The notes beneath the pieces are model-generated. The model did not search any database. It was not told where the DNA came from and was given only the letters and a program-made list of their open reading frames with translations. Positions 618 through 19,596 of a stretch of DNA of 64,000 nucleotides are shown piece after piece; positions within the stretch are counted from its first letter, which is position 1; the number at the start of each line of letters is the position of its first letter. The translations under genes were made by a program, and so were the position numbers. Source of the stretch: an uncultured Methylophaga sp. (GTDB lineage: Bacteria; Pseudomonadota; Gammaproteobacteria; GCF-002020875); contig CALEHW010000023.1 in the NCBI GenBank assembly GCA_937877715.1, positions 21,290-85,289 of the forward strand, given 5' to 3'.

Positions 618-620
618 CAC

Positions 621-2258: not shown

Positions 2259-3511
2259 GCACAGATGATCTTAACCAGGTCCTGCTTCACCCGGATCGCC
2301 GTTTTGGTGCAGATCTTGATACCTGGCTGGTTGATATCGGCGGTGACGGCTTGGAGAGTGCCATCCAGAATAGGGAAGAGATTCTGCCAACAATTCACAA
2401 GGCCAATCTGTTGGGGCTTGGGGGGAGCGGATTCCCCACCCATGTAAAGTGGGAATTCGTTGCTAATGAACCATCGGATCAGGACAAATATCTAATCTGT
2501 AATGGCAATGAGGATGAGCCGGGAACTTTCAAAGATCGGATACTTCTCCAGGAGACTCCTCATCAGGTAATTGAAGGTGCGATGATTACCGCCCTGGCCA
2601 CCGGCACCAACCAAATTGTCTTCTATATCAACCCCGAGCAGGAGGGCTCACTCGAGGCGATGAAAGAGGCTACCAACCAGTGGAGTGAGACCGATTACGT
2701 CAGCCAAATCTCCGAACTGCTGGGGCGCCCACTGGAATTTTATATTGTTGCTAGCTCTGGACACTACATTGGTGGGGAGGAGACTGCTGCCATCGAGTCC
2801 ATTGAGGGGAAATTCCCCTTCCCACGTGGCAAGCCACCCTACCCCGCCCAGACTGGATTGTTTGGACTGCCAACACTGATAAACAATGTAGAGACGATGG
2901 CCAATGTCTCTCACATCATCCGTAACGGCTCCGACTGGTTCATCAATCTGGGGCATGGGGAGTCTCACGGAACCAAGATTTTCTCTCTGAGTGGTGACGT
3001 ATTGCGCCCTGGGGCCTATGAGCTGCCAATGGGGACCCCGCTCTCCAACCTGATCTATGAGCACGGCGGAGGAATGCTGCTTGACCGAAAATTGAAGGCG
3101 GTATTCACCGGAGGACCATCCAACACAATTCTCACCCCGAAGGATCTTGATGTACCGCTGGACTTTGAGTCTGTGCAGCAGAGACGCTCCAGTCTCGGGA
3201 CTGGCGCAATGATCGTGATCTCCGAGGGGACCGGTATCGTACGTCGAGTCACGGAGTATGTATCCTTCTTTGCAAACTCCTCCTGTGGTCAGTGCCCATC
3301 ATGCAAGACTGGAACCTTCTATGCCTCACAGTTGCTCACTCGCATCGATAGCGGCAATGGGAATCGTGCCGATCTCGATACCCTGATTAACCTTACCCGC
3401 ATTCTTCCCGGAAGTGGTCGCTGCCACCTACTGGATGGAGCAATGAAACTACTAGACAGCTCACTCTACCACTTTATGGAAGAGTATGAGCAACCGCTAA
3501 AACACTCCTAA
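2255..3511 (+). CDS. NuoF-like (51-kDa subunit family) NADH-binding FMN/4Fe-4S protein.
   Basis: 418 aa. GLGGSGFPTHVKWEF matches the NuoF GRGGAGFPTGLKW motif. The C-terminal SCGQCPSCKTGT matches the NuoF 4Fe-4S motif. Overlaps the upstream gene by 4 nt. Confidence 0.75.
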   Translation: MSTDDLNQVLLHPDRRFGADLDTWLVDIGGDGLESAIQNREEILPTIHKANLLGLGGSGFPTHVKWEFVANEPSDQDKYLICNGNEDEPGTFKDRILLQETPHQVIEGAMITALATGTNQIVFYINPEQEGSLEAMKEATNQWSETDYVSQISELLGRPLEFYIVASSGHYIGGEETAAIESIEGKFPFPRGKPPYPAQTGLFGLPTLINNVETMANVSHIIRNGSDWFINLGHGESHGTKIFSLSGDVLRPGAYELPMGTPLSNLIYEHGGGMLLDRKLKAVFTGGPSNTILTPKDLDVPLDFESVQQRRSSLGTGAMIVISEGTGIVRRVTEYVSFFANSSCGQCPSCKTGTFYASQLLTRIDSGNGNRADLDTLINLTRILPGSGRCHLLDGAMKLLDSSLYHFMEEYEQPLKHS

Positions 3512-3767: not shown

Positions 3768-5639
3768 GTGCAACCACAAACCAAACAGGAACATATTGTA
3801 GAAATCGTCAGTGATTCCGGAGAAGGGGCGCAGAAGTGCGGACAGACCTTCGGAACCATCAGTGCAAAGATGGGGAATGGTGTCTGGACAGTAGAGATCA
3901 TTCCCGCTGAGATCCAGCCACCGGCACGAACCCCTTCCGGGGCCAGCGGCATCCGTATCAGACTCGGCTCAAAAGAGATTACTAATGTAGGTAACGAGGG
4001 TGATCTGGTAGTCGCCTTCAATGAGCAGGTTCTCTACTCCAGAATTGCAAATGGTGCTTATAAAGAGGGAACTGTGGTTCTGCTTGATAACCGCTGGGAG
4101 AGTGATCGCTCTACCGAGATTCAGCAGATGTACAAGAAGGCTGTTGCGGAGTTTCGAGACCATGGATTGGTTGTCCATGAACTACCAATCCACGAGGCCT
4201 GCCTAAAAGTTGTCAAAGATCCCCGCAAGGGGAAAAACATGTTTGTCCTTGGTATGCTCTGCCGAATATACAACCGTGACAAAGAGATGGGGCGCAATGA
4301 GATTGCACTCACCTTTGCTGGCAAGGCAGAGAAGATCATCACCAGCAACCAGAAACTGTTTGATGCCGGATACCAATTTGCAGCCGAGCAGCTTGGTGAA
4401 TATTTCTTTGAAATCCCAACTCGTGAAGACCGTAGTGACAGCCCAATGGTGGTCACAAATGGAAATACAGCTGTCGGCCTTGGAGTGATGGCCTCGGGAA
4501 TGGAGCTAGTCTCCATGTACCCGATTACCCCAGCCACCTCAGCCTCGCACTACCTTGCCGATGTGTTTCCAGCCGCAGGTGGCTTTGTCCACCAGGCAGA
4601 GGATGAGATTGCAGCAATCGCCTTTGCCATTGGTGCCTCCTATGCAGGTAAAACTGCCTGCACCATCACCTCCGGACCAGGTATGGCCCTAAAGACCGAG
4701 AATATTGCCCTAGCGGTAATGGCAGAGGTTCCCCTTGTAATTGTCAATGTTCAACGAGGCGGCCCATCCACTGGACTCCCCACCAAGATTGAACAGGGTG
4801 ACCTGCTCTCCGCACTTTATGGCGAGCCGGGTGATGCACCTAAAATTATCCTTGCAGCAGCAACTATCGCAGAGTGTTGCAGTATGGTGGTGCTGGCCAG
4901 AAAGCTGGCAGAGTCATTCCGTACCCCGGTAATTGTATTAACCGATGCCAACCTGGCAACCGGAGTACAGCCATGGGAACGTCCAGAGTTGAGTCGTGAC
5001 ATGCTGGCTCCACCTCTCGACCAATCAGAGTGGAATAGTGATATTCCCGCTTATGACTGGGATGAAAAAACCGGACTCTCACAACGTCCCATCCCGGGCA
5101 TGCCGAATGGTGAATACGTACTTACCGGACTCTCTCACACCAAACAGAGCAAGGTCTCATACGAATCTGCAGAAAACCAGTACAGCGCCACTATGCGTAG
5201 CCGTAAACTGGCCACCCTGCAGAGCACCCTGACCCCACCTAATATCCATGGGGACGAGAGTGGAGATATGTTGGTGGTTGGTTGGGGATCTACCTTTGGT
5301 GCAATCGAGGAGGCAGTCGATAATCTGCGGACAACGGGCGAGAAAATCTCATCAATCCATCTGCGCTTCCTCTCACCTCTGGAGCCTGGATTGACCGAGA
5401 TCTTCTCCCAATTTAAAAAGGTTATAACAATTGAGGTGAACTACAGTGATGACATCAATGCACCGATGATCACCACTGAAAATCGCCGCTATGCACAACT
5501 GGCAATGGTGCTTCGTGTTCAGACCCTGGCAGATGTCGACTGCTGGTCGGCAGTCTACGGCCATCCCCTGCAACCAGAGATGATCGGTAATGTTCTGCAG
5601 GAACGTCTAAACCAACTCAACAAGAAAACAGGAGAATAG
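3768..5639 (+). CDS. korA: 2-oxoglutarate:ferredoxin oxidoreductase alpha subunit (two-subunit Kor type; gamma+alpha domains).
   Basis: 623 aa with a GTG start. N-terminal SDSGEGAQKCGQ (gamma-domain glycine motif). YPITPATSASHYLAD is the hallmark YPITPxS motif of 2-oxoacid:ferredoxin oxidoreductases. Confidence 0.85.
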   Translation: MQPQTKQEHIVEIVSDSGEGAQKCGQTFGTISAKMGNGVWTVEIIPAEIQPPARTPSGASGIRIRLGSKEITNVGNEGDLVVAFNEQVLYSRIANGAYKEGTVVLLDNRWESDRSTEIQQMYKKAVAEFRDHGLVVHELPIHEACLKVVKDPRKGKNMFVLGMLCRIYNRDKEMGRNEIALTFAGKAEKIITSNQKLFDAGYQFAAEQLGEYFFEIPTREDRSDSPMVVTNGNTAVGLGVMASGMELVSMYPITPATSASHYLADVFPAAGGFVHQAEDEIAAIAFAIGASYAGKTACTITSGPGMALKTENIALAVMAEVPLVIVNVQRGGPSTGLPTKIEQGDLLSALYGEPGDAPKIILAAATIAECCSMVVLARKLAESFRTPVIVLTDANLATGVQPWERPELSRDMLAPPLDQSEWNSDIPAYDWDEKTGLSQRPIPGMPNGEYVLTGLSHTKQSKVSYESAENQYSATMRSRKLATLQSTLTPPNIHGDESGDMLVVGWGSTFGAIEEAVDNLRTTGEKISSIHLRFLSPLEPGLTEIFSQFKKVITIEVNYSDDINAPMITTENRRYAQLAMVLRVQTLADVDCWSAVYGHPLQPEMIGNVLQERLNQLNKKTGE

Positions 5640-5641
5640 TC

Positions 5642-6604
5642 ATGTTTGGAATCAAGGCAGACTGGTCCCTAGATATTCAGGAACGTTATTTCACTCTCGA
5701 TGATTATGAGGGCAATGAGGCACGCTGGTGTTCTGGTTGTGGTGATCATGCCGTACTGGCAACAGCCCACCGTATCCTGCGTGACGCACAGCTTCCACCT
5801 GAAAAATCTGTTTTTGTCTCAGGTATCGGTTGCTCCAGCCGTATGCCCCACTATATGGCTACCTATGGGCTACATGGAATCCATGGACGAGCCCTGCCAC
5901 TAGCATGTGGCGTCAAGTCACGCCGCCCTGATCTGGATGTCTGGGTTGCCACCGGAGATGGTGACTGTTACTCTATCGGTGCCGGTCACTGGATCCATGC
6001 TGTGCGATACAATATGGATATGACCGTACTGATTTTTGACAACCAGATTTATGGGCTAACCAAAAAACAGACATCCCCAACCAGTCCAATTGAACTAAAG
6101 ACCAACACCCACCCTGAAGGTGCCTCCCTGGATGCCATGAATCCCAACACAGTAACCCTGGGCATTACCAATGCATCCTTTGTGGCACAGGTGGTTGACT
6201 GGAACCCTCCCCTGCTACACGAGACACTCAAGGCTGCCCATGCCCACAAGGGAGCCAGCTTTGTACGCATCATTCAGCGCTGCCCGGTCTTTGTCGACTC
6301 CATCACCAAGGAGCTACAGGAAGATGCCTCACGTCTGCGGCTACTGACTCATGAGAATGGTATCCCGGTTGCCAAGGGGGTCGAAAAACTGTTCCCGGAT
6401 AGCGTAGAGCATGATCCGTCAGATATGGCAGGGGCACTCAGAATTGCACGAGACGAGACCGAAAAAGGGATTATTCCGGTTGGACTTCTCTACCAGAACC
6501 AGAACATCCCCTGTTACAGCGACCTCTCTGGTCAGGGCGTTGAGACTACAGATGAAGAGAAGATTGCAGCAACCAATGCAGCATTGGATGTATTTGCAAT
6601 ATGA
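5642..6604 (+). CDS. korB: 2-oxoglutarate:ferredoxin oxidoreductase beta subunit (TPP-binding).
   Basis: 320 aa. WCSGCGDH is the characteristic Cys motif. TGDGDCYSIGAGHW...DNQIYGLTKKQ is the TPP GDG...N motif. Lies 3 nt after korA. Confidence 0.85.
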   Translation: MFGIKADWSLDIQERYFTLDDYEGNEARWCSGCGDHAVLATAHRILRDAQLPPEKSVFVSGIGCSSRMPHYMATYGLHGIHGRALPLACGVKSRRPDLDVWVATGDGDCYSIGAGHWIHAVRYNMDMTVLIFDNQIYGLTKKQTSPTSPIELKTNTHPEGASLDAMNPNTVTLGITNASFVAQVVDWNPPLLHETLKAAHAHKGASFVRIIQRCPVFVDSITKELQEDASRLRLLTHENGIPVAKGVEKLFPDSVEHDPSDMAGALRIARDETEKGIIPVGLLYQNQNIPCYSDLSGQGVETTDEEKIAATNAALDVFAI

Positions 6605-9069
6605 GTAGCGCACCCTCCCTTCCTGTTCTCAAGTCAACTCGACCGGACCCAAAGTCCGAGGCCGCCATTCTGCGAACACTCCACCACTTCCATCTGGGAG
6701 ACCCCAGCGTGGAACAGGAGACCAGAGAGATCGGCAGCGACTACCTGCCAGCACTGTTGAATCCATTTCGTGACGCCTCCAAACTACGTTATGACTATCC
6801 ACTGATTCTCTTCTCCAGAGACTCGAAGCAGGATATTGCGCAGCCACTTACCTTATTTCTACAAGAGTCTGTCGCAGAGTTTGCCCCTGGGGAGAATAGT
6901 GCACGCATCCTCAAGGATAATCTCACCTGGCTAGAGCACGCTATTCGCAGCGAAATTACAGATAGTGAGAGACCAATTGGTCTCTCCCCAATCATGCAAC
7001 GTGCAATCGAGGCGCTACAGCAGCACCTATCTCTCTCGGGCGAAAACAAGGATAAACTGCAGAACGATCTTGACCAGCTACAAAAACAGTTTACTGATCA
7101 GGACAAGTTTCTCACCTACAATCGCTACACTGCAATCCATCTGATGATTCATCTGATCCATGGAAGATCAGAGGAACGCTGGGATGAATTTGAGAGCGAG
7201 CTTGAACAGCTACAACAACAACTGTCAAAAATACTGGAGATTGAGCAGAGCAAGTCCAAAGAGGCAATGGGTGCAGATGCTATGCAGAAAAGCGTAGGCA
7301 GCAGCGCATCCCGATTCAATCCTGAGGCTCTCTCATCTATTCTTCCCCATAGTGCCGGCACAGTGGCAATGTCGGATGAACGAAAGGAGCGTATCAGCCG
7401 CGCTGCAGAGACTCTAGACCAATTCAACCGTGACCCCATTCAGGTGCACTTCATCCATACTGGAGACTTCTCTGGGGATTGGAGTGATAGCAGTGTACAT
7501 TTCAAAACCACTATCGACGCAGACCCATGCCACAAGGCAGCGGAACTATTCGATGAGGAGGCCAATAATCTGGCAGAACTGTTCAGTGCCTGCAGGATTG
7601 CGCGCCTAGAAATAAACAACAGCTATGATCCCATTGTGCATGATCCATGGTTTGCCAATTTTAACTGGGAGGCCTTCTCTGAAGAGGAGTTATTGCTGGT
7701 TCCAGCAATTGTTGCCTTGGAGCCTGCCGATAGGCTGGGACATGAAGGACTAAACTCGTTTTCTCAGTTATTGGGGTCGGGCAGGCCAATTCAGATCCTC
7801 AGCCGAGTCAAGGGGCACAGCAACCCGGCAGCCACTGAAGATGAATCTCCATTTCATGATTTCCGTCTGGAGCTGGGATACCTCGCAACAGCCCACCGCC
7901 AATGTTATGTCGCCCAGACCTCAGCAGCACGTTACCAGCATCTAATGCAGGGCTTCCTTGAAGCGACAGAGATACCACGGACCGGGGTACATCTAATTAA
8001 CACTGGAATTCAGCATGCCGATGACGACTTCCTGATGGACCCATGGATGGTTGCCAGTGCAGCCCTCGAGGGACGTGTACACCCCTTCTTCCGGATGAAT
8101 CCAGAACGGGGAGACACCTTTGCAGAGCGCATGGATTTCAGCATAAATCCGCAGCCGGAGAGAGACTGGGCGACCCACCCTTTCAGTTACAAAAACGAGT
8201 CCGGTGAGGTTACCCATACCGAATTCGCATTCACCTTTGCCGATTACGCACTACTGGTTCCACGCCTACAAAACCATTTTCGCCTGATTCCAGATGACTT
8301 TGAATCAGACTCTCTAACCCCTATTGCAGAGTATCTTGACTGCTCCAATGAGGAGAGTTTCTCACTAGTACCGTTTGTCTGGGCCATCAATGAGGACAAT
8401 ATTCTTCACAGGGCAGTAGTCTCACGCGAACTAATCCTTGCCTGCAAGGACCGCCTCAACTACTGGCACACCCTGCAAGAGCTATCTGGAGTTCGGAACC
8501 TACATGCAGAGCAGGCCGTAACTGAGGCTCAGCTGCTTATGGAGGCAAAACAGAACAGTGTAATCAGCGAACTAAATGCCGCACATGATAAGGAGATCAA
8601 CCAACTCAGAGCCGATGCAACAACCGAGGTGATGGGGAAACTGGCCCAAGTATTGATGGGAATGAATCTTGGGGCAAGATCGAGCGACCTTGAACATGGA
8701 TTCTCCTCTCCTCCCCCCACAGAGGCAGTCCTCCAAACTCCAGATAGTGAACCGACCAAGGTAAGTAAGGAGGAGGCCAAGGATCAGGTTACGGAAGAGG
8801 AGCCTGAAGCAGAGATTTCGGAAGACCCATGGATTGAGTCTATTCTATGCACTACCTGCAATGACTGTACTGACATGAATCCTCAGATGTTTGTCTACAA
8901 TGATGACAAGCAGGCCTATATTGCCGACCCTAATGCCGGAACCTATGAGGAGCTGGTCGAGGCAGCAGAGATATGTCCCTCACGCTGCATCCATCCCGGC
9001 CTTCCGCTCAACAGTAGTGAGCCCAACCTAGATGAGCTGATCGAGAGAGCAGCCCCCTTCAATCAGTAG
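6601..9069 (+). CDS. Large uncharacterized protein. N-terminal approx 330 aa are unknown and helical. The central region resembles PFOR domain VI but has no GDG motif and no proximal-cluster Cys. The C-terminus is a single [4Fe-4S]/[3Fe-4S] ferredoxin domain.
   Basis: 822 aa. Overlaps the korB stop as ATGA. The region ...YVAQTSAARYQHLMQGFLEATEIPRTGVHLINTG...HPFFRMNPERGDTFAERMDFSINP aligns by eye to the PFOR C-terminal region (YVAxVSMG...PGPSLxIAYSPC...WPLYRYNPxxxxxGKNPFxLDS). The C-terminal CTTCNDCTD...FVYNDDKQAYIADPN...CPSRC is the pattern of single-cluster ferredoxins (Pyrococcus/Thermotoga Fd type). It shares the helical motif AHDKEINQLRAD with the 1286-aa protein (GHQQEINNLRNQ). Confidence 0.6.
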   Translation: MSSAPSLPVLKSTRPDPKSEAAILRTLHHFHLGDPSVEQETREIGSDYLPALLNPFRDASKLRYDYPLILFSRDSKQDIAQPLTLFLQESVAEFAPGENSARILKDNLTWLEHAIRSEITDSERPIGLSPIMQRAIEALQQHLSLSGENKDKLQNDLDQLQKQFTDQDKFLTYNRYTAIHLMIHLIHGRSEERWDEFESELEQLQQQLSKILEIEQSKSKEAMGADAMQKSVGSSASRFNPEALSSILPHSAGTVAMSDERKERISRAAETLDQFNRDPIQVHFIHTGDFSGDWSDSSVHFKTTIDADPCHKAAELFDEEANNLAELFSACRIARLEINNSYDPIVHDPWFANFNWEAFSEEELLLVPAIVALEPADRLGHEGLNSFSQLLGSGRPIQILSRVKGHSNPAATEDESPFHDFRLELGYLATAHRQCYVAQTSAARYQHLMQGFLEATEIPRTGVHLINTGIQHADDDFLMDPWMVASAALEGRVHPFFRMNPERGDTFAERMDFSINPQPERDWATHPFSYKNESGEVTHTEFAFTFADYALLVPRLQNHFRLIPDDFESDSLTPIAEYLDCSNEESFSLVPFVWAINEDNILHRAVVSRELILACKDRLNYWHTLQELSGVRNLHAEQAVTEAQLLMEAKQNSVISELNAAHDKEINQLRADATTEVMGKLAQVLMGMNLGARSSDLEHGFSSPPPTEAVLQTPDSEPTKVSKEEAKDQVTEEEPEAEISEDPWIESILCTTCNDCTDMNPQMFVYNDDKQAYIADPNAGTYEELVEAAEICPSRCIHPGLPLNSSEPNLDELIERAAPFNQ

Positions 9070-9076
9070 CAAACTG

Positions 9077-9940
9077 ATGAATAGCTTGCTTGCCTCTCCA
9101 GCCATCATGATGGGAATTGGCCTCTTCTTTGGGGTGATTCTTGCTGTGGCCTACCGCCTGCTAAAGGTGGACGAAGACCCAAGAATTGATGAGACCGAGG
9201 AGATGCTGCCCGGCACCAACTGTGGCGCCTGTGGTGTCCCGGGCTGCCGCGCCTTTGCCGAGGAGCTGATCAGGGGCACTGCCGAACCGAGTCAGTGCAC
9301 GGTTGCCCCCAAGGATGAGATCGTGGAGATTGCAGATTTTCTCGGAGTTGATGCAGGATCACAGATCAAGCGGGTTGCCCGCCTCCACTGTGCCGGCGGC
9401 AAGGCCGAGGCCTGGCAGATTGCAGAGTACCGGGGGTTTGACAGCTGCCGTGCGGCCGCCGTGGTATCCGGTGGCGGCAAGGGGTGTTCCTGGGGATGCC
9501 TTGGGCTGGCCGACTGCGAGATAGCCTGCAATTTCGATGCTATCCATATAAACAGTAATGGACTACCTGTAGTAGATCCGGAGAAATGTACAGCCTGTGA
9601 GGATTGTGTTGTTGCATGCCCCAAGGATCTCTTCAAGATCCATCCTGTCAACGAACACCTGTTTGTGCAGTGCAGTGCCCCTCTGGAGGGGGACGCCATC
9701 CTCTCTCTTTGCAGTGCCGCCTGTGACAGCTGCAGCCGTTGTGCCTCAGACTCCAACCCTGGCCTAATAGAGATGGTCGACGGACTACCCGTTGTTGACT
9801 ACAGCAGCGGGGCCGAAGAGAGTCCCGATGCTACCTGGCGCTGCTCAACCGAGGCCATTATCTGGCTTGATGGTGGACAGTTTGATCAACAAAACCAAAA
9901 CATGACCGAAGGTCAGAAACGTTATGCCCAGCTTCGCTGA
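9077..9940 (+). CDS. rnfB: Rnf electron transport complex subunit B (polyferredoxin).
   Basis: 287 aa. N-terminal membrane anchor followed by LPGTNCGACGVPGCRAFAEEL, the RnfB signature. Multiple CxxCxxCxxxCP motifs downstream. Confidence 0.85.
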   Translation: MNSLLASPAIMMGIGLFFGVILAVAYRLLKVDEDPRIDETEEMLPGTNCGACGVPGCRAFAEELIRGTAEPSQCTVAPKDEIVEIADFLGVDAGSQIKRVARLHCAGGKAEAWQIAEYRGFDSCRAAAVVSGGGKGCSWGCLGLADCEIACNFDAIHINSNGLPVVDPEKCTACEDCVVACPKDLFKIHPVNEHLFVQCSAPLEGDAILSLCSAACDSCSRCASDSNPGLIEMVDGLPVVDYSSGAEESPDATWRCSTEAIIWLDGGQFDQQNQNMTEGQKRYAQLR

Positions 9941-12900
9941 AATTGCCAACCGCATCTATCGTAAAGTTCTCGGTGTAGATGGCACCGTGGGGGAAGACAA
10001 GAACAGCATCTCTGTGCTGCTCGATGGTGCCACCGCAGTGGCCACTGTCGAGGCGATACTCTCCGAGGCTGCAGCCAGTGGCGAAACCTTCCCTCCAGAG
10101 AGGGGATCAAGTGCCTGGCGTAGCGAACAGCAGCGCCAGCAGGTAAACCTGTTCGGAAAACCACTGCTACAGATGGAGAGTAACACCCCTCGCGGCTCTC
10201 TCTCTGCCGCCATGGGTCTTGCAATGGCTGGCAGACGAGCTTTCTGCAGCCTCTGGTCGAGCGATCTTGCCGCCTCACAAGATCTGGTTCGCAGAGCAGT
10301 TGGCCGCCACCTGCCACTGGTTATCCATACCATTAATCGTGCACTCCCTCTAAACGGAGAGAGCCTTGGCGGAAGTGATGAGGGAATCCACCAACTGACA
10401 AATAGTGGGGCATTCATCCTCTTTGCCGAGAATGGTCAACAGGCAGTTGATTTCACTCTGATCGCCCGTGCCGTTGCAGAGCGAGCCCTGGTTCCCGCAA
10501 TCGTGGTCATGGATGGTGACGAGACTGCATTTGCATCTCAACAGATCGATCTCCCATCTCCTGAACTGATTGAAAAACTTATCGGCAACAGCTCCGACCC
10601 CATATCAATTGCTGACCCGGCACAGCAGCTGCTGTTTGGTGATGAACGCCGCAGGGTGCCGGGCTGGTACAGCCTGGACCACCCCACCCTGCAGGGGAGT
10701 TATCGTGACCGCCACAGCTTTGGAACTGGAGCGGTCTCTCACACCACCTTCTTTGGAAAACAGGTTAAGGGAATTCTGCATGAAATCTTTGGTGAGTTTG
10801 CAGACTTAACCGGAAGAAACTACAGCTCCCTTAACTACCATGGTAAAAAAGGTGCAAGGAAGATAGTAATCACCCAGGGAGCCATTACTGGACGCTGCCG
10901 CACAATTGTCGATCTATTGCAGAAGAGAGAGAAGATCTCGATCGCGGTTGTTGGAATAGGGACTACTGCCCCCTTCCCTGCCGCAGAGCTGGGAGAAATT
11001 CTACAAAATTGCCAGGAGATCACCCTGTTCGATCGCAGCGAACCTCTGCTAAACGAGCTCCCTCCACTGTACAGTCAGGTGGCCCCACTCATTCCAGCTA
11101 ACTGCAGATCCGCATCCATCATTTATGGGGTTGGCGGAACCCCAGTCAATGATGCCGACCTGATCGCCGCCTGCATGGCTCCACACAACAGATCAGCTGG
11201 TGAAGTCCCCGTCTACCGAATGGGAATAACCACACTAGCCGACAATAGCAATCCAAAACAGCAGGTACTCAGGGATCTGCTGGAAAGAAACTATCCACAG
11301 CTGGCAGAGCTGGGAATCAGAGAAGAAGATTCTGCCGCAGAGGAGAGCCCAGCAACACCATCCGTCTTGCGGGCATCCGCAGGAGGCGAAACGCCCACCC
11401 ACCGGACGCCAATGGCGGTACGACACCTTGGCAAACAGGGTGGTGTCGGCCACGCTGGATACCACAACCTGTCACGATTCTGGGATCAGACCGGTCTGCT
11501 CTATCGGGATGGAATGGAGAGTAGACAGGGGGTTGATCCATTTGCTGCCGCTGCTCACATACCACCACTGACATCAACATTTTCCAGCGTTGGGGATGGA
11601 TCCATTCCATTCTTCAATCCGGAAAACTGTAGTGGATGTGGCAGCTGCTGGAGCAACTGCCCAGACAGCGCTATTGGCGCCGTCTCCATACTACCCAGCA
11701 AACTACTGGAATCAGCCCTACAGATGGGAGGAGCAGATGCACTACGCCCACATCTCTCCGAGCTATCCAGGGAAATAAGCCTTACTACCGAAAGTGGAGA
11801 GGCTGGCACTATTATCCGAAAGAGCTGGGATACGATAATGGAACAGTCCCCTCTTTCAGAGGAGAGAAGAGCCAGTGCCGAGGATGCCATAACAACACTT
11901 ATCTCTAATATCGGCGCCCTCCCGGTTGCCCATACAGAACCACTATTCCATCAGCCGGAACGGCTTAAGGCTCAATCAGGTGAACTACTCTCTGTGGTCA
12001 TCAACCCTGATAGCTGTAAGGGGTGCGGAATATGCACCCGCCTCTGTCAGGATGAGTCTAATCGACAGGAGATTGAAAATCCCGCCCTCACCATGATGGA
12101 GCAGGATAGTAAAGATAGAGAGAACAGTTATCACACCTGGAGCATCTGGGAACAACTCCCAGATAGTGCCTCAACCACACTGGTCAATTATGGGACATAT
12201 CCCGATATAGGTCAGCTCAATGCAACCATGCTCTCTCGCTACGCCTCCATGACCATGGCTGGTGGAGATTCTGCAGAGCCAGGCTCTGGAGAGAAGATTG
12301 TTGTTCGTCAGCTACTGGGGATTACTGAATACCATCAACAACCACTTGTTCGTCAACTTCTCAAGGAGATGGATGAGAAACAGAGTGGGCTGGTTGCAGG
12401 GATTCGCGAAAAACTGGCTACAGCATCCCATGCAGATGATCTCTCTCTTCTGGCAGAGGGGCTGGGGAATCTATCCAGTCGTCAGCTTGATCTAACCACC
12501 CTGGCAGAAAAAACTGCTGGTATTGAGGGTGACAGTGTAGATGCCCACGAGCTGAAAGAGTGGGTAGAGCTTGCCGAATCCATTCGCATAGAAAAGGAGA
12601 AGATCGAGAAGGGAGAACACTCTCTGGGACGTGCTCGCTACAGTCTGGCCTTCGCCTCGGGAACCGCTGCCACCTGGGCTGGCACCTTCCCCTACAACCC
12701 ATTCCAGGTTCCGGTAGTAATTGGAGAGGCTGGGGAGATCGGGGCTCTGGCCTCAGGATTGATGGAGGGACAACTAGAGCAGACAACTGAAGTCCACCGC
12801 CTTCTCCGCAAGGCAAAGGCCTTGCTCAAGGGGAGACTTCCTGCCGAGCGCAAGGAGATAGACAAAACAACATGGGGAGACCTTACCGCAGATGAGCTGC

Positions 12901-13784
12901 AACAGTGCCCTCCCATGCTGCTTATTGGGAATGACACTACACTGGGTGCAGGATCTGCCGGTGAGCTCAACTGGATTCTCAACAGCAGGCTCCCCATCAA
13001 GATTATCGTGCTGGCAGAGATGGATCTTGGCTTTAGCGAGGCTCATGCAGACTCCAGATCAGAGCTTGCCATGGCTGCCCTCTCCCAACGCGGTGCATAT
13101 GTGGCCCAGTGCTCCATCGCGGCACCAGAGCAGATGAACCGAGCAATGCGTGAGGCCCTAAACTACCCAGGCCCTGCACTATTGCGGCTCCACGCCCCAA
13201 GCCCACAACGCCACGGATTTGGCCCCGAGATGACTACTGTCCAGGCAGAACGAGCAGTAAATGGACGTGCCTTCCCACTATTCAGTTACAACCCGGAGGC
13301 AACAGGGGTGTTTGGTACCCGCATCAGCCTTGGGGGCAACCCGGAGAGTGAGATCTCCATCGCAGAGTGGGCCTTCCATGAGGGGCGCTTCTCCGGACAA
13401 TTCCAACCCTTATCTCCTGCACTGCAGAGCCAATCTGCAAATCTTGAGGAGTGGCTCAAACTGGATGAGAGGGGGCAAAACAACAAGACACCAATATTCA
13501 ACGAGTATGCAATCGAACCGGATTTTGCACGTCGACTGGGGCAACTTGTCGAACAGTGGCAGATGCTGCAGGAGCTGGCCGGTATCGTCACCCCATTTAC
13601 CGAAGATGTCAGAGAGCAGGCAGACAAGGCAATTGCTGAGAGTCACCAAAGAGAAATTGACGAGTTGAAAAAGGGACACCAGCAGGAGATAAACAACCTG
13701 CGCAACCAACTGGAATCCGAGATTACCCAGAGGATTACCGAACGCCTAGTTGCACTAACTGAAACCCAGAAAAAACCAAACTAA
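9924..13784 (+). CDS. Divergent pyruvate:ferredoxin oxidoreductase (PFOR/NifJ)-like protein. It keeps the two-cluster ferredoxin domain but apparently lacks the proximal-cluster cysteines. It has an insertion of about 170 aa and a coiled-coil C-terminal tail.
   Basis: 1286 aa. Domain-I-like region DGATAVATVEAI...MGLAMAGRRAFCSLWSSDL...LPLVIHTINRAL matches PFOR DGNTAxAHVAYA...HGALAAGALTTTFTASQGL...LPGVFHVSARA. Ferredoxin domain CSGCGSCWSNCP + CKGCGICTRLC (8 Cys). Domain-VI-like region IGNDTTLGAG...YVAQCSIAAPEQMNRAMREALNYPGPALLRLHAPSPQRHGFG...FPLFSYNP. The positions of the PFOR proximal-cluster ligands (GACxGCGE, ATGCSS, SPC) read AGGDSAEPGS, ASGTAATW and SPQ. Confidence 0.65.
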   Translation: MPSFAEIANRIYRKVLGVDGTVGEDKNSISVLLDGATAVATVEAILSEAAASGETFPPERGSSAWRSEQQRQQVNLFGKPLLQMESNTPRGSLSAAMGLAMAGRRAFCSLWSSDLAASQDLVRRAVGRHLPLVIHTINRALPLNGESLGGSDEGIHQLTNSGAFILFAENGQQAVDFTLIARAVAERALVPAIVVMDGDETAFASQQIDLPSPELIEKLIGNSSDPISIADPAQQLLFGDERRRVPGWYSLDHPTLQGSYRDRHSFGTGAVSHTTFFGKQVKGILHEIFGEFADLTGRNYSSLNYHGKKGARKIVITQGAITGRCRTIVDLLQKREKISIAVVGIGTTAPFPAAELGEILQNCQEITLFDRSEPLLNELPPLYSQVAPLIPANCRSASIIYGVGGTPVNDADLIAACMAPHNRSAGEVPVYRMGITTLADNSNPKQQVLRDLLERNYPQLAELGIREEDSAAEESPATPSVLRASAGGETPTHRTPMAVRHLGKQGGVGHAGYHNLSRFWDQTGLLYRDGMESRQGVDPFAAAAHIPPLTSTFSSVGDGSIPFFNPENCSGCGSCWSNCPDSAIGAVSILPSKLLESALQMGGADALRPHLSELSREISLTTESGEAGTIIRKSWDTIMEQSPLSEERRASAEDAITTLISNIGALPVAHTEPLFHQPERLKAQSGELLSVVINPDSCKGCGICTRLCQDESNRQEIENPALTMMEQDSKDRENSYHTWSIWEQLPDSASTTLVNYGTYPDIGQLNATMLSRYASMTMAGGDSAEPGSGEKIVVRQLLGITEYHQQPLVRQLLKEMDEKQSGLVAGIREKLATASHADDLSLLAEGLGNLSSRQLDLTTLAEKTAGIEGDSVDAHELKEWVELAESIRIEKEKIEKGEHSLGRARYSLAFASGTAATWAGTFPYNPFQVPVVIGEAGEIGALASGLMEGQLEQTTEVHRLLRKAKALLKGRLPAERKEIDKTTWGDLTADELQQCPPMLLIGNDTTLGAGSAGELNWILNSRLPIKIIVLAEMDLGFSEAHADSRSELAMAALSQRGAYVAQCSIAAPEQMNRAMREALNYPGPALLRLHAPSPQRHGFGPEMTTVQAERAVNGRAFPLFSYNPEATGVFGTRISLGGNPESEISIAEWAFHEGRFSGQFQPLSPALQSQSANLEEWLKLDERGQNNKTPIFNEYAIEPDFARRLGQLVEQWQMLQELAGIVTPFTEDVREQADKAIAESHQREIDELKKGHQQEINNLRNQLESEITQRITERLVALTETQKKPN

Positions 13785-13816: not shown

Positions 13817-14995
13817 ATGAACCTCCACGAATACCAATCCAAACAGCTCTTTGAGCAGGTAGGCATCCCCATCCCCAAGGGCAAAACAGTTGAGAGACTG
13901 AATGATGTAGAGCAGGCAGCAGATGAGATTGGCGGCTCTGCATGGGTTGCCAAGGCACAGGTTCATGCCGGCGGCCGCGGCAAAGCCGGGGGGGTCAAAA
14001 TTGCCAGCAGCAAGGATGAGCTTGCTACATTCACCAATGAGATGCTTGGTGGAACCCTGACCACCCCACAGACTCATGGCCGGGCACTACCAATTCAGAA
14101 AGTCCTGATCGAGCAGACCCTGGATATCGGTCGCGAACTCTATCTGGGCGCACTGGTTGACCGCGATCGCGAACAGATTGTCTACATGGCATCCGCTGCA
14201 GGTGGCATGGATATCGAGCAGGTTGCCGCCGAGACACCGGAGAAGATTCTCACCGTACATGCCCACAGCGCTGCCGGTCTACAGCCTTACCAGTGCCGTC
14301 AACTGGCGTTTGGTCTCGGACTGAAGGGAAAGCAGATTGGTGCGCTTACTCGTATCCTCAGCGGACTCCATATCCTATTCATCCATAACGACCTGAGCCT
14401 GGTCGAGATCAACCCCCTGATCGTTACGGTGAGTGGGGAGTTACTGGCACTGGATGCAAAGATTAACCTTGATGACAACGCTCTATATCGCCATCCCAAA
14501 CTGCAGGAGCTGCATGACCCATCTCAGGAGGACGCAAGGGAGCTGGAGGCGGGCAAGCATGACCTCAATTACATTACCCTGGATGGCAATATTGGTTGCA
14601 TGGTAAACGGTGCAGGCCTGGCAATGGCCACCATGGATCTTATCAAGCTCCATGGTGGAGACCCGGCAAATTTCCTCGATGTTGGTGGAGGCACAACCGC
14701 AGAACGGGTAGCTGCCGCATTCAAACTAATCCTCAGTGACTCCAAGGTAGAGGCCATTCTGGTAAACATCTTTGGCGGCATTGTCCGTTGTGACCTTATC
14801 GCCGAGGGGATTATCACTGCAGTAAAAGAGGTGGGAGTAGAGATACCGGTAATTGTCCGCCTCGAGGGGACCAATGCCCCTCAGGGGATGGAGCTATTGA
14901 AAAAGAGCGGCCTTGATATTGATGTCGAAGAGACCCTGACCGGCGCCGCCAAAAAAGCAGTCGCCTCCACCACGTCAACAGGAGAAGGGGCATGA
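13817..14995 (+). CDS. sucC: Succinyl-CoA synthetase beta subunit (ATP-grasp).
   Basis: 392 aa. [12 protein letters not shown]...[17 protein letters not shown] is a near-canonical SucC N-terminus. Confidence 0.9.
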
Positions 14996-15879
14996 GTATC
15001 TTGATCAACGCAGAGACCCGCGTCATCGTACAGGGATTTACCGGAAAACAGGGTACCTTCCATGCCGAGCAATCCATCGCCTATGGCACCAATATTGTCG
15101 GTGGCGTCACCCCCGGCAAGGGTGGCCAGAGCCATCTTGATCGACCCGTATTCAATACCGTAGCTGATGCGGTGACAGAGACTGGTGCAGATGCCACCAT
15201 GATCTATGTCCCCGCAGCCTTTGCTGCCGATGCAATATTTGAGGCCGCCTCGGGTGGAATCAAAACCATTGTCTGCATTACCGAGGGGATCCCGGTTCAG
15301 GACATGATCAAGGTTAAAGCATTCCTGAGCGACTACCCCGATACCCACCTTATTGGACCCAACTGCCCCGGCATCATCACTCCAGGTAGCAACAAAAATG
15401 GCTGCAAGATTGGAATCATGCCAGGAAATATCCACCAGGAGGGCTCCGTAGGAATCGTCTCCCGCTCCGGAACACTCACCTATGAGGCAGTATTCCAGAC
15501 CACCAATGAGGGGCTGGGACAAAGCACCTGTATCGGAATTGGTGGAGATCCGATTCATGGCATGAACTTTATCGACTGCCTGGAGCTATTCCAGCAGGAT
15601 GAGCAGACCAAAGGAATTGTTCTGGTTGGCGAGATTGGCGGCAGCAAGGAGGAGGAGGCTGCCGAATATATCCGCAACAGTGTCACCAAGCCGGTAGTTG
15701 CCTATATTGCCGGAGTTACTGCACCTCCAGGACGAAGAATGGGCCACGCCGGTGCCATCATCTCCGGCGGCAAGGGTACAGCCGAGGACAAGATAGCCGC
15801 ACTCGAGGCTGTCGGGGTAACAGTCTCCCGCTCCCCGGCCGAGATTGGCAAGCACATGGCAGAGCTATTAAATAGCTAA
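14992..15879 (+). CDS. sucD: Succinyl-CoA synthetase alpha subunit.
   Basis: 295 aa. Rossmann CoA-binding N-terminus [12 protein letters not shown]. Phosphohistidine loop [15 protein letters not shown]. Overlaps the sucC stop as ATGA. Confidence 0.9.
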
Positions 15880-15888: not shown

Positions 15889-17238
15889 ATGGGCCTTCTC
15901 TCAAGCTTCAAACGCAGCTTTTCTCACGGTGTACATCCTGCCCACTACAAGGGGCAGACCGAGAATCTCGCGATTCAACGTGTCCCTTTTGGCAATCGCT
16001 ATGTGATGCCACTAGGACAGCACATTGGGGCGCCAGCAATTGCTGTCGTCAACAAGGGGCAGCATGTCGGTCGAGGTGAGCTGATTGCCAAGCCAGGAGG
16101 GTTCATCTCAACAGCACTCCACAGTCCAGTCACAGGAACAGTCACTGAGATCTCCCCGCAACGAACCCTGGATGGATCCTTCAAGCCTACAATTGTGATT
16201 GAGGCAGATCCATTCTCCGCACAGAGAGTTGAGACCACCCCACCCGCCTCATGGGAGGAGTTATCTATTGAGGAGTTCATCGAAACAGTTCAGCAGGCGG
16301 GAATTGTTGGGATGGGAGGCGCCGCCTTCCCCAGCCACGTCAAATACTCGATTCCAGATGGTGCACATATTGATGATCTTCTGGTCAATGGTGCCGAGTG
16401 TGAGCCATTCCTAACCAATGACCACCGACTGATGGTTGAGCGTCCCGAGACGGTAATTCAGGGAACAGAGATCCTGCGGCAGAAACTGGGGGCAAAACGG
16501 GCCAATATCGGGATCGAGAGGAATAAACCAGAGGCGATAAGAGCACTGGAAAAAGTTCTGGAGAAGAGTCCATCCCTGCCTATTACGCTATCCCCGCTGG
16601 AGGTCAAATACCCTCAGGGCGCAGAGAAGATGCTGATCCAGTCTGTCTACCGCAAAGAGGTTCCGGCGGGCCAGCTCCCCAGAGATATTGGGGTTGCCGT
16701 CAATAATGTAGGAACCGTTGTAGCCATTGCAGACCTGTTTGCGACCGGTGCCCCACTCATAGAGCGCGTTGTTACCGTCTCCGGACCGGGAATCGATCAA
16801 CCTGCAAACCTGATGGTGCCACTTGGTACACCAGTTCGTGACCTACTCAGTTTCTGTGGCGGGCTCAACGATAAGACTCGCGAGATCATTATGGGCGGAC
16901 CGATGATGGGGTTTCCCATCACCAGCCTGGATGTACCAATACTGAAGGGCAGCTCCGGAATTCTTGCATTCACCGAAGAAGAGACAGCACGCCCACATGA
17001 ATACCCGTGCATCCGCTGTGGCCGCTGCCTGGAGGCATGCCCCTATTTCCTCAACCCATCTCGTCTGGCGCTGTTGAGCCGTAACCGACGCTACGAAGAG
17101 ACTATGGATTATCACGTAATGGATTGTGTAGAGTGCGGGGCCTGCAGTTTTGCCTGCCCCTCAAATATCCCAATAGCTCAGTTGATCAGAACAGCCAAAG
17201 ACAATCTCAGGCAAAACCCTGTAGAGGAGGCTGCATGA
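15889..17238 (+). CDS. rnfC: Rnf complex subunit C (NADH/FMN-binding, 2x[4Fe-4S]).
   Basis: 449 aa. GMGGAAFPSHVKY (NuoF-like FMN/NADH motif). CIRCGRCLEACP and CVECGACSFACP. Confidence 0.85.
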   Translation: MGLLSSFKRSFSHGVHPAHYKGQTENLAIQRVPFGNRYVMPLGQHIGAPAIAVVNKGQHVGRGELIAKPGGFISTALHSPVTGTVTEISPQRTLDGSFKPTIVIEADPFSAQRVETTPPASWEELSIEEFIETVQQAGIVGMGGAAFPSHVKYSIPDGAHIDDLLVNGAECEPFLTNDHRLMVERPETVIQGTEILRQKLGAKRANIGIERNKPEAIRALEKVLEKSPSLPITLSPLEVKYPQGAEKMLIQSVYRKEVPAGQLPRDIGVAVNNVGTVVAIADLFATGAPLIERVVTVSGPGIDQPANLMVPLGTPVRDLLSFCGGLNDKTREIIMGGPMMGFPITSLDVPILKGSSGILAFTEEETARPHEYPCIRCGRCLEACPYFLNPSRLALLSRNRRYEETMDYHVMDCVECGACSFACPSNIPIAQLIRTAKDNLRQNPVEEAA

Positions 17239-18251
17239 GCAAGAGAGATCCAGACCTTCTCCTACAGTCTGCGCCACTGCTTAAACAGGGGCTGAGTGTG
17301 CCTACCGCAATGCGTGATGTCCTGCTGGCCCTGATGCCGGCACTATTTGCGGGATTCTGGTTCTTTGGCCTCAGCGCCATTCTTGTGGTTGCAGCAACCA
17401 TTCTTGGTGCTATGGCAACCGAGTGGCTCTTCACCCCAAAACAGGAGCGGGCAGTTGCACTTGGTGACGGCAGCGCACTGCTGACCGGTCTACTGCTGGG
17501 AATGACTCTCCCCCCCGCCCTCCCTCTCTGGATGGCGTGGCTTGGCGGTGTGGTTGCAATTGGTCTTGGTAAAACCATCTGGGGAGGGCTCGGCAACAAC
17601 CTCTTCAACCCTGCCATTGTGGGACGTGCCTTCCTGCTGGGAACCTTTCCAATCGCCATGACCACCTGGCATGTGGCCGCAGGACCCGATTCATTCTTCC
17701 AGCTCCACCCCAGCACCCTTGCCCTCCCCTTCATGCAATCCCCCCCAATGGACGGGATGAGTGCAGCCACCCCACTGGGTCTGATGAAATTCGAGCAGAT
17801 CGACTCCCCGATCTTCTCCCTGATGTTTGGGAACAGCTCCGGCTCCCTGGGAGAGACCAGCGGGGTACTGCTGATGGTTGGTGGACTCTACCTGCTCTTG
17901 CGTCGCGCCCTGGAGTGGAGAATTCCCTTGGCAATTTTTATCTCTGCCGGACTCTTCACCCTACTGCTAGAGACCATAGACCCTGCACGCTTCCCCGGTA
18001 TACACTTCACCATCTTCTCTGGCGGAATGATGCTGGGGGCCATCTATATGGCAACCGACCCGGTCACCTCCCCGGTCACCCCCAAAGGGGCCTGGATATT
18101 CGGTTGTGGTATCGGGGTTCTGGTGGTACTGATTCGTAACTTCGGCGGGCTCCCGGAGGGAATACTCTATGCGATCCTACTCATGAATGCCGCCACACCG
18201 CTGATTAACCGCTACACTCAGCCCCGGGTCTTTGGCAGGAGCAGGTCATGA
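17235..18251 (+). CDS. rnfD: Rnf complex subunit D (membrane subunit with covalent FMN).
   Basis: Polytopic membrane protein. SAATPLG contains the FMN-attachment Thr. ATG at 17235 overlaps the rnfC stop as ATGA, so I prefer it to the longer ORF-track start at 17124. Confidence 0.8.
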   Translation: MSKRDPDLLLQSAPLLKQGLSVPTAMRDVLLALMPALFAGFWFFGLSAILVVAATILGAMATEWLFTPKQERAVALGDGSALLTGLLLGMTLPPALPLWMAWLGGVVAIGLGKTIWGGLGNNLFNPAIVGRAFLLGTFPIAMTTWHVAAGPDSFFQLHPSTLALPFMQSPPMDGMSAATPLGLMKFEQIDSPIFSLMFGNSSGSLGETSGVLLMVGGLYLLLRRALEWRIPLAIFISAGLFTLLLETIDPARFPGIHFTIFSGGMMLGAIYMATDPVTSPVTPKGAWIFGCGIGVLVVLIRNFGGLPEGILYAILLMNAATPLINRYTQPRVFGRSRS

Positions 18252-18943
18252 CAGAGCCGGCTGACCAGAGACCAAATAGCACGAATGAGGCTCCACCACC
18301 AGTGGTGATGGAGCCGAGCTCAATCAGACTTATCTCCACCCTGGCAATTGCCGGGCTTGTCTCCGGTATTGCAATTGTCGCCATCTATGAGGCCACCCTG
18401 CAGACCATCACCGAAAACAAGGCTCGAGAGCTGCGCGAGGCCGTATTTAAGGTGCTGCCAGGGGTTAGCAAGATGAAAAAATTTCAGCTTGAGGAAAATG
18501 GCATCCGCTTCCGTGCCGAAGAGGGCAAGGATGAAAATACCATATATGGGGGATACAACCAGCAGGGAGAATTTGTCGGTTATGCCCTCCCCAGTGCCGG
18601 TCCCGGCTTTCAGGACACTATCGGAATACTCTACGGGTACATCCCGGAGTCCCGCAAGGTTGTGGGAATGGAGATCCTGGAGAGCCGTGAAACCCCGGGG
18701 CTGGGAGACAAGATATACAAGGACCTCTCCTTCGTCTCCAATTTTGATAACCTCTCCATCGACCCTGAGATTGTCACCATCAAGAAGGGGATGAAAAGTG
18801 CCGCCAATGAGGTAGATGCCATTACCGGGGCAACCATCTCCTCCAAGGCAGTTGTTCGCATCATCAACGAGGGTAACGAACGCTGGATAAACCAGCTTCC
18901 CACTTATGGGATCCCCCTACCTGAAGAAGGGAGTCCAGAATAA
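18248..18943 (+). CDS. rnfG: Rnf complex subunit G (periplasmic FMN-binding).
   Basis: 231 aa. N-terminal TM helix. ITGATISSKAV is the flavinylation motif. Confidence 0.8.
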   Translation: MTEPADQRPNSTNEAPPPVVMEPSSIRLISTLAIAGLVSGIAIVAIYEATLQTITENKARELREAVFKVLPGVSKMKKFQLEENGIRFRAEEGKDENTIYGGYNQQGEFVGYALPSAGPGFQDTIGILYGYIPESRKVVGMEILESRETPGLGDKIYKDLSFVSNFDNLSIDPEIVTIKKGMKSAANEVDAITGATISSKAVVRIINEGNERWINQLPTYGIPLPEEGSPE

Positions 18944-19596
18944 TGGCAAAAACACCAGAGAGCGTATACCAGGAGATGCTCAAGGGAATCTGGAGAGACA
19001 ACCCGGTCTTTGTCCAGGTACTAGGGATGTGTCCAATGCTGGCGGTCACCAACTCCGCAGTCAATGCACTGGCGATGGGGCTGGCCACATTCTTTGTACT
19101 GGTTGGCTCCAGCCTGCTGGTCTCGATGATGCGCAAGTGGATCCCCAAACAGGTCCGAATCTCCAGCTACATCATTATTATCGCCACCTTTGTAACCATC
19201 ATTGACTACACCCTACTGGCGCTGTTTCCCAAGATCCACAAGGAGCTGGGAGCATTCATTCCACTGATTACCGCAAACTGCCTGATCCTTGGGCGACAGG
19301 AGGCCTTTGCCTCACGCAACAGTGTCCGTTTTGCAGTGATGGATGCGGTGGGCATGGCGGGGGGATTCCTCTTTGCCCTGCTGGCACTTGGTGGGGTACG
19401 CGAGATTCTCGGTGAGGGGGCGCTGTTTGGAGTATCCCTGTTTGGCCCCAATTTTGAGCCCTGGATAATCATGATCCTGCCACCTGGCGGATTCCTTACC
19501 CTGGGGTTAATTCTGCTCTTCTTTAACTGGGTTACAGAGAAGCACAAAGAGGCACAGATGCGTCTGCTACAGCCAGCTGAGGAGAGATCATCATGA
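18943..19596 (+). CDS. rnfE: Rnf complex subunit E (NqrD/RnfE family).
   Basis: 217 aa polytopic membrane protein. VLGMCPMLAVT and LITANCLILG resemble the NqrDE/RnfAE conserved Cys helices. Confidence 0.8.
   Translation: MAKTPESVYQEMLKGIWRDNPVFVQVLGMCPMLAVTNSAVNALAMGLATFFVLVGSSLLVSMMRKWIPKQVRISSYIIIIATFVTIIDYTLLALFPKIHKELGAFIPLITANCLILGRQEAFASRNSVRFAVMDAVGMAGGFLFALLALGGVREILGEGALFGVSLFGPNFEPWIIMILPPGGFLTLGLILLFFNWVTEKHKEAQMRLLQPAEERSS

Follow-up and report, generated by a model that had tools for sequence, protein, structure and literature searches.

A predicted non-catalytic variant of the 2-oxoacid:ferredoxin oxidoreductase superfamily encoded among the rnf genes of an uncultured Methylophaga sp.

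The window, that is the whole 64 000-nucleotide (nt) stretch of DNA analysed here, was taken from contig CALEHW010000023.1 (positions 21,290 to 85,289, forward strand; assembly GCA_937877715.1) of an uncultured Methylophaga sp.; the surrounding segment is gammaproteobacterial chromosome of ∼53% GC. The genes at window positions 63–21319 all lie on the + strand and are tightly packed. Among them an open reading frame (ORF) at 9924–13784 encodes, from an ATG start, a 1286-amino-acid (aa) protein of a type annotated in public records as pyruvate:ferredoxin oxidoreductase (PFOR). It is referred to as PflB and the 822-aa product of the gene two places upstream as PflA; both names were coined in this analysis. 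Judged from its residues, PflB is very probably not a PFOR enzyme. An earlier note made from the letters alone had described a PFOR homolog without the ligands of the proximal [4Fe–4S] cluster, and the ORF, its start and the PFOR fold were borne out. An exact look-up returned no record of the window PflB protein itself, and homologs were analysed instead. The following parts of PflB were delimited.

10005–11318 (aa 28–465), + strand: domains I and II, from POR_N and PFOR_II matches, the alignment and Foldseek [template-modelling (TM) score 0.79–0.83 to PorA and the OOR alpha subunit].
11319–11408 (aa 466–495), + strand: low-complexity linker of 30 aa in place of domain III, from the alignment and a predicted local distance difference test (pLDDT) score of <50.
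11589–12158 (aa 556–745), + strand: ferredoxin domain with two CxxCxxCxxxC motifs (C569–C579 and C698–C708), from Fer4 matches.
12159–13328 (aa 746–1135), + strand: degenerate domain VI, from alignment blocks; no TPP_enzyme_C.
12288–12608 (aa 789–895), + strand: helical hairpin insert of ∼100 aa between the former second and third proximal cysteines, from helices of the AlphaFold2 model.
13329–13781, + strand: domain VII (FPLFSYNPE onward), W..LQELAG motif and C-terminal helix, common to PflA; from alignment to the Protein Data Bank (PDB).

Pfam matches in PflB were confined to POR_N (aa 82–224), PFOR_II (311–408) and Fer4 (563–584 and 691–712); no match to POR/domain III (PF01558), EKR or TPP_enzyme_C was obtained, even at E 0.1. 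With phmmer against the PDB, domains I and II and the last part of domain VI aligned to the Moorella and Desulfovibrio PFORs. A weak PorB-like match covered aa 1045–1124. The best PDB match of the family profile was PFOR (E 7e-79); the profile reached RnfB only through a generic Fer4 motif (E 5e-5), and no homology to RnfA, RnfB, RnfC, RnfD, RnfE or RnfG was found. The AlphaFold2 model, calculated for residues 1–1200 with a 56-sequence alignment, has a pLDDT of 85.8 and a predicted TM score of 0.87; its best Foldseek matches are the PFOR chains 6cin and 1b0p (E ∼1e-40), and its domains I and II superpose on alpha subunits of 2-oxoacid:ferredoxin oxidoreductases (OFORs). The model indicates that PflB keeps the OFOR core fold. 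Pfam, the PDB alignment and Foldseek agree with the recognition by eye, in the earlier note, of domains I, V and VI and of a YRYNP-type C-terminal region.

The catalytic positions were located in a MAFFT alignment of 98 homologs, among them five PFORs of the canonical type and three long relatives with intact catalytic residues, which anchor the alignment because they share the insertions of PflB. The four positions of the proximal-cluster cysteines are occupied by E785, S788, T914 and S1093, in the same stretches that had been named as lacking them: AGGDSAEPGSGEK stands against GGDGACMGCGEK, ASGTAATW against STGCSSVW and HAPSPQRHGF against YTPCPVEHGL. The position of the domain I glutamate that activates thiamine pyrophosphate (TPP) is P89; in the aligned non-catalytic members it is P, A, G, S, T, V or I and never Glu. 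The TPP/Mg site, already noted as altered, reads NDT for GDG (with D1004 kept), AEM for DTE and F1037 for the Asn of SNTGGQ. None of the eight ferredoxin-domain cysteines has been lost, and they are invariant or nearly so (C569, C572, C575, C579, C698, C701, C704 and C708). By this alignment PflB is predicted to be without canonical TPP binding or activation and without a proximal cluster. The alignment is robust and shows the losses as substitutions at the aligned positions, and an ordinary nifJ product is not what is found, TIGR02176 (the PFOR equivalog model) scoring 113.8 bits against a cut-off of 911.35.

Compared with PFOR/NifJ (1B0P, 6CIN, TIGR02176), PflB has the domain order I, II, V, VI, VII, the eight-cysteine ferredoxin domain and the YxYNP-type C-terminal region in common. 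It differs in lacking the TPP/Mg motif, the activating Glu and the proximal [4Fe–4S] cluster and, in the window clade, domain III, and it adds helical inserts in domains V and VI, a 28-aa N-terminal peptide, a C-terminal amphipathic helix and its location in an rnf operon. The domain III deletion amounts to ∼190 aa in the window clade relative to canonical PFOR and to the rest of the family, where the place of the linker is taken by a segment with homology to the domain III that the intact relatives have (E 1e-21 to 2e-16). The single insertion of about 170 aa that the earlier note had placed after the ferredoxin domain resolves into two, one within the ferredoxin domain between its two Cys motifs (∼75–95 aa, helical, aa ∼590–685) and the other the hairpin within domain VI; since the catalytically intact relatives also have them, neither insertion is tied to loss of function. 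The tail is an amphipathic helix of ∼55 residues in which the conserved hydrophobic positions recur with a period of ∼3.8. At the N-terminus (aa 1–27, 9924–10004) lies a conserved peptide, MPSF...A.R.YR.L.G, which is absent from canonical PFOR and is predicted as a helix with a pLDDT of ∼50; its role might be to dock a partner protein. Conservation of MPSF...A.R.YR across the family supports the ATG start.

The losses are common to the family. At 84 of 89 loci (loci are cited below by L numbers and proteins by P numbers) all four proximal cysteines are absent and all eight of the ferredoxin domain present; three of the 89 are the catalytic relatives, and the eight ferredoxin cysteines are complete in 88. 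In the alignment the non-catalytic homologs P0001–P0089 and P0091 have the same pattern of residue loss throughout. Little or no variation is seen in the replacing residues E785, S788 and S1093, and 41 columns of the family alignment are invariant. At least 84 independent loci, at 29–68% identity, have an uninterrupted reading frame, the closest ortholog being 68% identical. Because the same substitutions and the eight cysteines are conserved across loci, the loss of catalysis is taken to be a family trait and not decay. PflB thus combines the marks by which a pseudoenzyme is recognized: homology to an enzyme family, loss of catalytic residues and conservation across species. One deviation was seen at L010:7001–10522 (64% identical), which has a cysteine at the second proximal-ligand position (AECT for AEST) and is the only non-catalytic locus with a cysteine at any of these positions.

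In a scan of one genome per species, relatives were found in at least 441 species genomes. Among these are Thiohalomonadaceae, Sedimenticolaceae, Woeseiaceae, Thioploca, Thiomargarita, Thiodiazotropha, Thiosymbion, the Escarpia and Lamellibrachia symbionts and the cultured Thiorhodococcus mannitoliphagus (DSM 18266). The loci closest to the window are from metagenome-assembled genomes (MAGs) labelled uncultured Piscirickettsiaceae, and the window SucC clusters at 90% identity with the SucC of Candidatus Thiopontia autotrophica.

The genes around pflB were assigned as follows.

63–617, + strand: ferredoxin-like gene.
621–2258, + strand: FAD_binding_2 flavoprotein, 545 aa.
2255–3511, + strand: NuoF-like flavin mononucleotide/iron–sulfur (FMN/Fe–S) protein, 418 aa.
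3768–5639, + strand: korA (Pfam).
5642–6604, + strand: korB (Pfam); its stop overlaps the pflA start.
6601–9069, + strand: pflA, 822 aa.
9077–9940, + strand: rnfB (NCBIfam rnfB models).
9924–13784, + strand: pflB, 1286 aa, ATG start.
13817–14995, + strand: sucC [succinyl-coenzyme A (CoA) synthetase; NCBIfam equivalog match].
14992–15879, + strand: sucD (succinyl-CoA synthetase; NCBIfam equivalog match).
15889–20186, + strand: rnfC, rnfD, rnfG, rnfE and rnfA (NCBIfam, Pfam, synteny with called genes in L001 and the tblastn layout).
20183–20365, + strand: Cys-rich membrane ORF of 60 aa.
20381–21319, + strand: mdh.

The position of pflB between rnfB and sucCD is as had been stated in the earlier note. 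The rnfB stop and the pflB start overlap by 17 nt, and korB and pflA by 4 nt. Synteny was assessed from the tblastn layout of the 86 loci with a non-catalytic PflB, neighbours being counted by the order of elements. RnfB stands immediately upstream of PflB in 76 of the 86, and most of the other ten end at a contig edge; PflA precedes RnfB in 66 and KorB precedes PflA in 59. The next element downstream of PflB is RnfC at 56 loci and SucC at 17, with none at 11. The canonical order is korA-korB-pflA-rnfB-pflB-rnfC-rnfD-rnfG-rnfE-rnfA, and the sucCD pair between pflB and rnfC, as in the window, is a lineage-specific insertion. At L004:16664–18003, where PflB is 60% identical, rnfC was called in two pieces (123 and 317 aa) with no rnfDGEA after them; this reflects either an assembly or frameshift problem or a lineage that keeps just the cytoplasmic Rnf parts beside PflB.

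KorB is a complete beta subunit of 2-oxoglutarate:ferredoxin oxidoreductase (OGOR) of the Magnetococcus type, matching chain 6n2n_B of the M. marinus OGOR (E 6e-49) and keeping every cluster and TPP motif, with WCSGCG, GIGCSS, GDGD...DNQIYGLTKKQ and RCP; from its sequence KorAB is assigned as an intact two-subunit OGOR. It belongs to the same superfamily as PflB and would be the active enzyme of the operon: KorAB is catalytically complete, with a single cluster and no ferredoxin domain, and PflB is the converse. RnfB belongs to the long clostridial type and has a membrane helix at its N-terminus (PDB entries 9eri_B, E 3e-51, and 7zc6_B, E 4e-46). The window RnfB and RnfC–RnfA are orthologous to those of the Rnf complexes of Acetobacterium woodii (9ERI) and Clostridium tetanomorphum (7ZC6), of which the matched subunits (RnfA, B, C, D, E and G) include no OFOR-like protein; unlike in these, the window rnfB is detached from rnfCDGEA and is flanked by two OFOR-derived genes.

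The second of these OFOR-derived genes is pflA. BLASTP aligned PflA residues 355–689 to PflB 983–1279 (E 4e-14), and hhalign aligned PflA 48–688 to PflB 545–1280 with a probability of 100 (E 1.6e-40); the best Foldseek matches of the PflA model were OFOR beta subunits and PFOR. Its parts are as follows.

aa 48–630, + strand: degenerate core of domains V, VI and VII.
8500–8655 (aa 634–685), + strand: tail helix (AlphaFold2).
8659–8835 (aa 687–745), + strand: disordered acidic linker of ∼60 residues (AlphaFold2 pLDDT 31–38).
8836–9000 (aa 746–800), + strand: single-cluster Fer4_13 ferredoxin (Fer4_13 match; Desulfovibrio africanus ferredoxin I, 1dax).

PflA has no domains I–III, none of the ferredoxin-domain cysteines and no TPP motif of any kind; the W..LQEL.G motif and the long C-terminal helix are common to both proteins. 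PflA thus appears to be a truncated and equally non-catalytic paralog of PflB. More than 329 cluster representatives were found, including those of the Riftia endosymbiont, Sedimenticola, Thiocystis violacea and Thiorhodococcus. A separate 77-aa gene encodes the PflA-type ferredoxin in the Solemya pervernicosa symbiont, and in the more distant clade of L005 PflA is 1317 aa long and still has degenerate domains I and II. The equally long P0091 (1317 aa) was considered as a second long-form PflA and was rejected; BLAST shows it to be of the PflB type, and its length equals that of the L005 gene by coincidence.

The three distant homologs that keep every catalytic residue are 1650–1730 aa long and share the insertions and the tail of PflB. 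These long OFORs are the nearest relatives of PflB by sequence (26–27% identity; e.g. P0090, P0092, P0311 and P0345). With one of them as the query, a large family was retrieved from MAGs of Gemmatimonadota, Planctomycetota and Myxococcota/Deltaproteobacteria; among the members listed, all 119 keep the Glu, four Cys, D, D and N positions, and 117 of the 119 have a C-terminal single-cluster ferredoxin motif. Within the literature searched the family is apparently undescribed. Like PflB, its members have the insertions and the W..LQEL motif with its helix and lie in the rnfB–rnfC slot downstream of korAB; unlike PflB, they keep the Glu, the proximal cysteines, GDG...DT...N, domain III and a tethered ferredoxin of their own, as well as TPP_enzyme_C, which Pfam does detect in the intact sister protein.

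For five of the six long OFORs sampled for their gene context the order is korA-korB-(∼332-aa protein)-rnfB-OFOR-rnfCDGEA-(∼59-aa ORF)-apbE. The loci are L008:5129–10327, L009:214–5157, L090, L091 and L092:7001–∼12050, and their tethered ferredoxin and rnfB/rnfC slot below korAB suggest an Rnf-coupled 2-oxoacid oxidoreductase. In place of PflA, between korB and rnfB, operons of this kind carry a protein of ∼332–357 aa (L008:3179–4252, L090:5134–6138, L091:5147–6145 and L092:5130–6128) for which no relation to PflA was found by BLAST or hidden Markov model and no match in Pfam. The sixth long OFOR (Propionicimonas, L007) lies outside an rnf operon and is followed by a 909-aa GltD/NfnB-like flavoprotein (L007:12971–15700; domains Fer4_20, Pyr_redox_2 and DHODB_Fe-S_bind), which suggests that OFORs of this type may have another, NAD(P)-linked partner.

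Some neighbouring features of the window are recorded here. The listed TTG start of rnfD (17124) overlaps rnfC by 115 nt; because the corresponding overlap in L001 is just 4 nt, the true start is probably near 17235. The 60-aa ORF after rnfA (20183–20365) has one membrane helix and a Cys-rich tail (CGAC...C) and shows weak FeoB_associated similarity (20 bits, under the cut-off); ORFs of 53–70 aa also directly follow rnfA in L001, L003, L009, L091 and L092. The ferredoxin-like, FAD_binding_2 and NuoF-like genes upstream of korA (63–3511) are kept in synteny in L001, L003 and L004 and may form a soluble NADH-dependent fumarate reductase; a published cluster list labels them 'frdx*' and 'nuoF*' (PMC6315080). 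Together, sucCD, mdh and this putative FAD/NuoF-type fumarate reductase fit an oxaloacetate-to-2-oxoglutarate module. In consensus scans for promoters and terminators over 1–23 kb, sites were no commoner than after shuffling of the sequence, and no gene boundary had one.

The gene has appeared in earlier reconstructions. For the Escarpia laminata symbiont, a 'rTCA cycle cluster 2' [reductive tricarboxylic acid (rTCA) cycle] was given as gltA, ferredoxin, frdx*, nuoF*, korA, korB, por-like, rnfB, por, sucC and sucD, with 'por' taken as a pyruvate synthase helping to complete the cycle (Rubin-Blum et al., 2019; PMC6315080); 'por' and 'por-like' were transcribed at levels similar to those of korAB (PMC6315080, Table S1). 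Because the gene order is identical in the tubeworm-symbiont loci L030–L032, we infer that 'por' is PflB and that 'por-like' is PflA. A 2024 co-expression study of Endoriftia mentions, without analysing it, a 'PFOR-like' gene that we also take to be one of these; under sulfide limitation both this gene and korAB(3) go down, and the main rTCA cluster goes up (PMC11636981). Kentron genomes were reported to have several PFOR copies (PMC6593406), and the Kentron family members P0060 and P0064 are annotated as PFOR. In the literature searched, the coverage of which was incomplete, no description was found of the loss of the TPP site and proximal cluster, of the PflA paralogy or of an OFOR in rnf operons, and direct coupling of a 2-oxoacid oxidoreductase to Rnf was likewise not described.

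The best explanation of these sequences is that PflB descended from an OFOR encoded between rnfB and rnfC. Because intact relatives occupy this slot in other phyla, it would ancestrally have held an active OFOR with its own ferredoxin. A duplication, with the two copies then reduced in complementary ways, would account for the PflA/PflB pair; PflA would have kept the tether and ferredoxin and PflB domains I and II and the two-cluster domain, with catalysis lost in both. We consider it rather likely that PflB is now a non-catalytic Fe–S subunit working with Rnf and KorAB. Of the two possibilities left open by the earlier note, a pseudoenzyme or scaffold agrees with these results, and no support was found for rewired catalysis. 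The question it raised, whether homologs share the Cys losses, is answered in the affirmative; the absence of domain III, the extent of the loss across the family, the paralogy with PflA, the constant rnfB and rnfC partners and the intact relatives in the same slot had escaped it.

Several observations weigh against a non-catalytic Rnf-associated subunit, for which operon position and translational coupling are evidence of an indirect kind. The equivalent of the substrate-binding Arg of PFOR is kept in PflB (HTINR) and most family members keep a degenerate domain III, so some ligand binding by PflB is possible. Superposed as a whole, PflB and PFOR agree poorly (TM 0.33, root-mean-square deviation ∼26 Å) and their domains match singly, which bears on any analogy of quaternary structure. 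The long C-terminal helix expected from the earlier note is present; its heptad pattern is not, and the period of ∼3.8 does not support a canonical heptad coiled coil. Only rnfB-pflB-rnfC stand together in L006 and L081, and in L004 and L030–L032 rnfDGEA are not adjacent, so that attachment to the Rnf membrane part is not guaranteed. Lastly, no Rosetta-stone fusion of PflB to RnfB, RnfC or KorB was found among the loci. An apparent 1848-aa 'PflB-RnfC' ORF in L050 is an artefact that spans a run of N with a change of frame, and the other over-long ORFs are artefacts of stop-to-stop extension.

As to how such a subunit might work, a tethered-ferredoxin KorAB–PflAB–Rnf membrane supercomplex is put forward tentatively from sequence, predicted structure and gene order. 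PflA and PflB would probably be paired by their matching C-terminal helices and by the domain VI/VII cores that they share as paralogs, making up a catalytically dead, OFOR-like platform at the cytoplasmic side of Rnf, associated with RnfB and RnfC. KorAB would carry out the interconversion of 2-oxoglutarate with succinyl-CoA and CO2, and electrons would pass between KorAB and RnfB via the PflA ferredoxin on its ∼60-residue linker and the two clusters of PflB. The two dead PFOR paralogs would thus serve as scaffold and electron wire and the tethered ferredoxin as a swinging arm, and the reaction would be coupled to NAD(H) and the ion gradient with no need for a low-potential ferredoxin in free diffusion. 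It could run either as reductive carboxylation driven by reverse Rnf or as oxidation with conservation of energy. Many sulfur-oxidising Gammaproteobacteria would have such an assembly, among them Woeseiaceae, Thiomargarita, purple sulfur bacteria and the symbionts of tubeworms, clams, nematodes and ciliates; the ancestral version would be a catalytically active OFOR bound to Rnf, as in Gemmatimonadota, Planctomycetota and others.

The alternative that survives best is that PflB acts on its own as a large ferredoxin, or else serves KorAB or Rnf in redox regulation or assembly, being co-expressed with them and no stable subunit of an Rnf supercomplex. To this we give perhaps one chance in a few, slightly below that of the supercomplex. 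It is consistent with the two conserved [4Fe–4S] sites, with the absence of fusions to Rnf or Kor subunits and with the genomes in which rnfDGEA are not adjacent. The C-terminal domain of D. africanus PFOR modulates the oxygen sensitivity of that enzyme, which also counts in its favour. The rnfB–rnfC slot, however, is fixed across several phyla, with start and stop codons that overlap or nearly abut in the loci read, as is more typical of stoichiometric subunits; a protein of 1286 aa would moreover be an unusually costly carrier, and PflA already supplies a small ferredoxin.

It is improbable that PflB is still an enzyme, binding TPP or another cofactor in a non-canonical way or having its half-site complemented by a partner, with direct transfer of electrons to the median cluster. 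There is indeed good conservation of the fold and of the domain I/VI core, with many invariant residues, D1004 and the substrate-Arg equivalent are kept and most members keep a domain-III-like region. Against this, the Glu, the DTE...N motif and the proximal cysteines are replaced across the non-catalytic members, TPP_enzyme_C is undetected at E 0.1 yet is detected in the intact sister, and the CoA-binding domain III is wholly lost in the window clade. An intact KorAB is encoded alongside, and complementation in trans would have no donor because domain VI of PflA is equally degenerate.

The notion of a functionless evolutionary relic, which the loss of catalytic residues and, in the window clade, of a whole domain might suggest, is effectively refuted by conservation (a frame intact in at least 84 loci, 41 invariant columns and eight retained ferredoxin cysteines), besides which the AlphaFold2 model is confident and the gene is transcribed in symbionts, and it is given next to no weight.

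Within the OFOR superfamily PflB represents a new variant, non-catalytic by prediction, whose link to Rnf is conserved. Published symbiont reconstructions (the Escarpia 'rTCA cycle cluster 2' and possibly some of the Kentron 'PFOR' copies) count the gene as a pyruvate synthase; since its sequence would preclude the pyruvate synthase reaction, carbon-fixation models that use PflB would need another PFOR or revision. Cultured carriers exist in Thiorhodococcus mannitoliphagus DSM 18266 and, for PflA, in Thiocystis violacea and Sedimenticola. The presence between rnfB and rnfC of an OFOR-derived protein, active or dead according to phylum, points to direct coupling of OFORs to the Rnf ion pump. 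Such coupling would bear on the long-standing question of how low-potential electrons are supplied to oxygen-sensitive carboxylases in microaerobic autotrophs.

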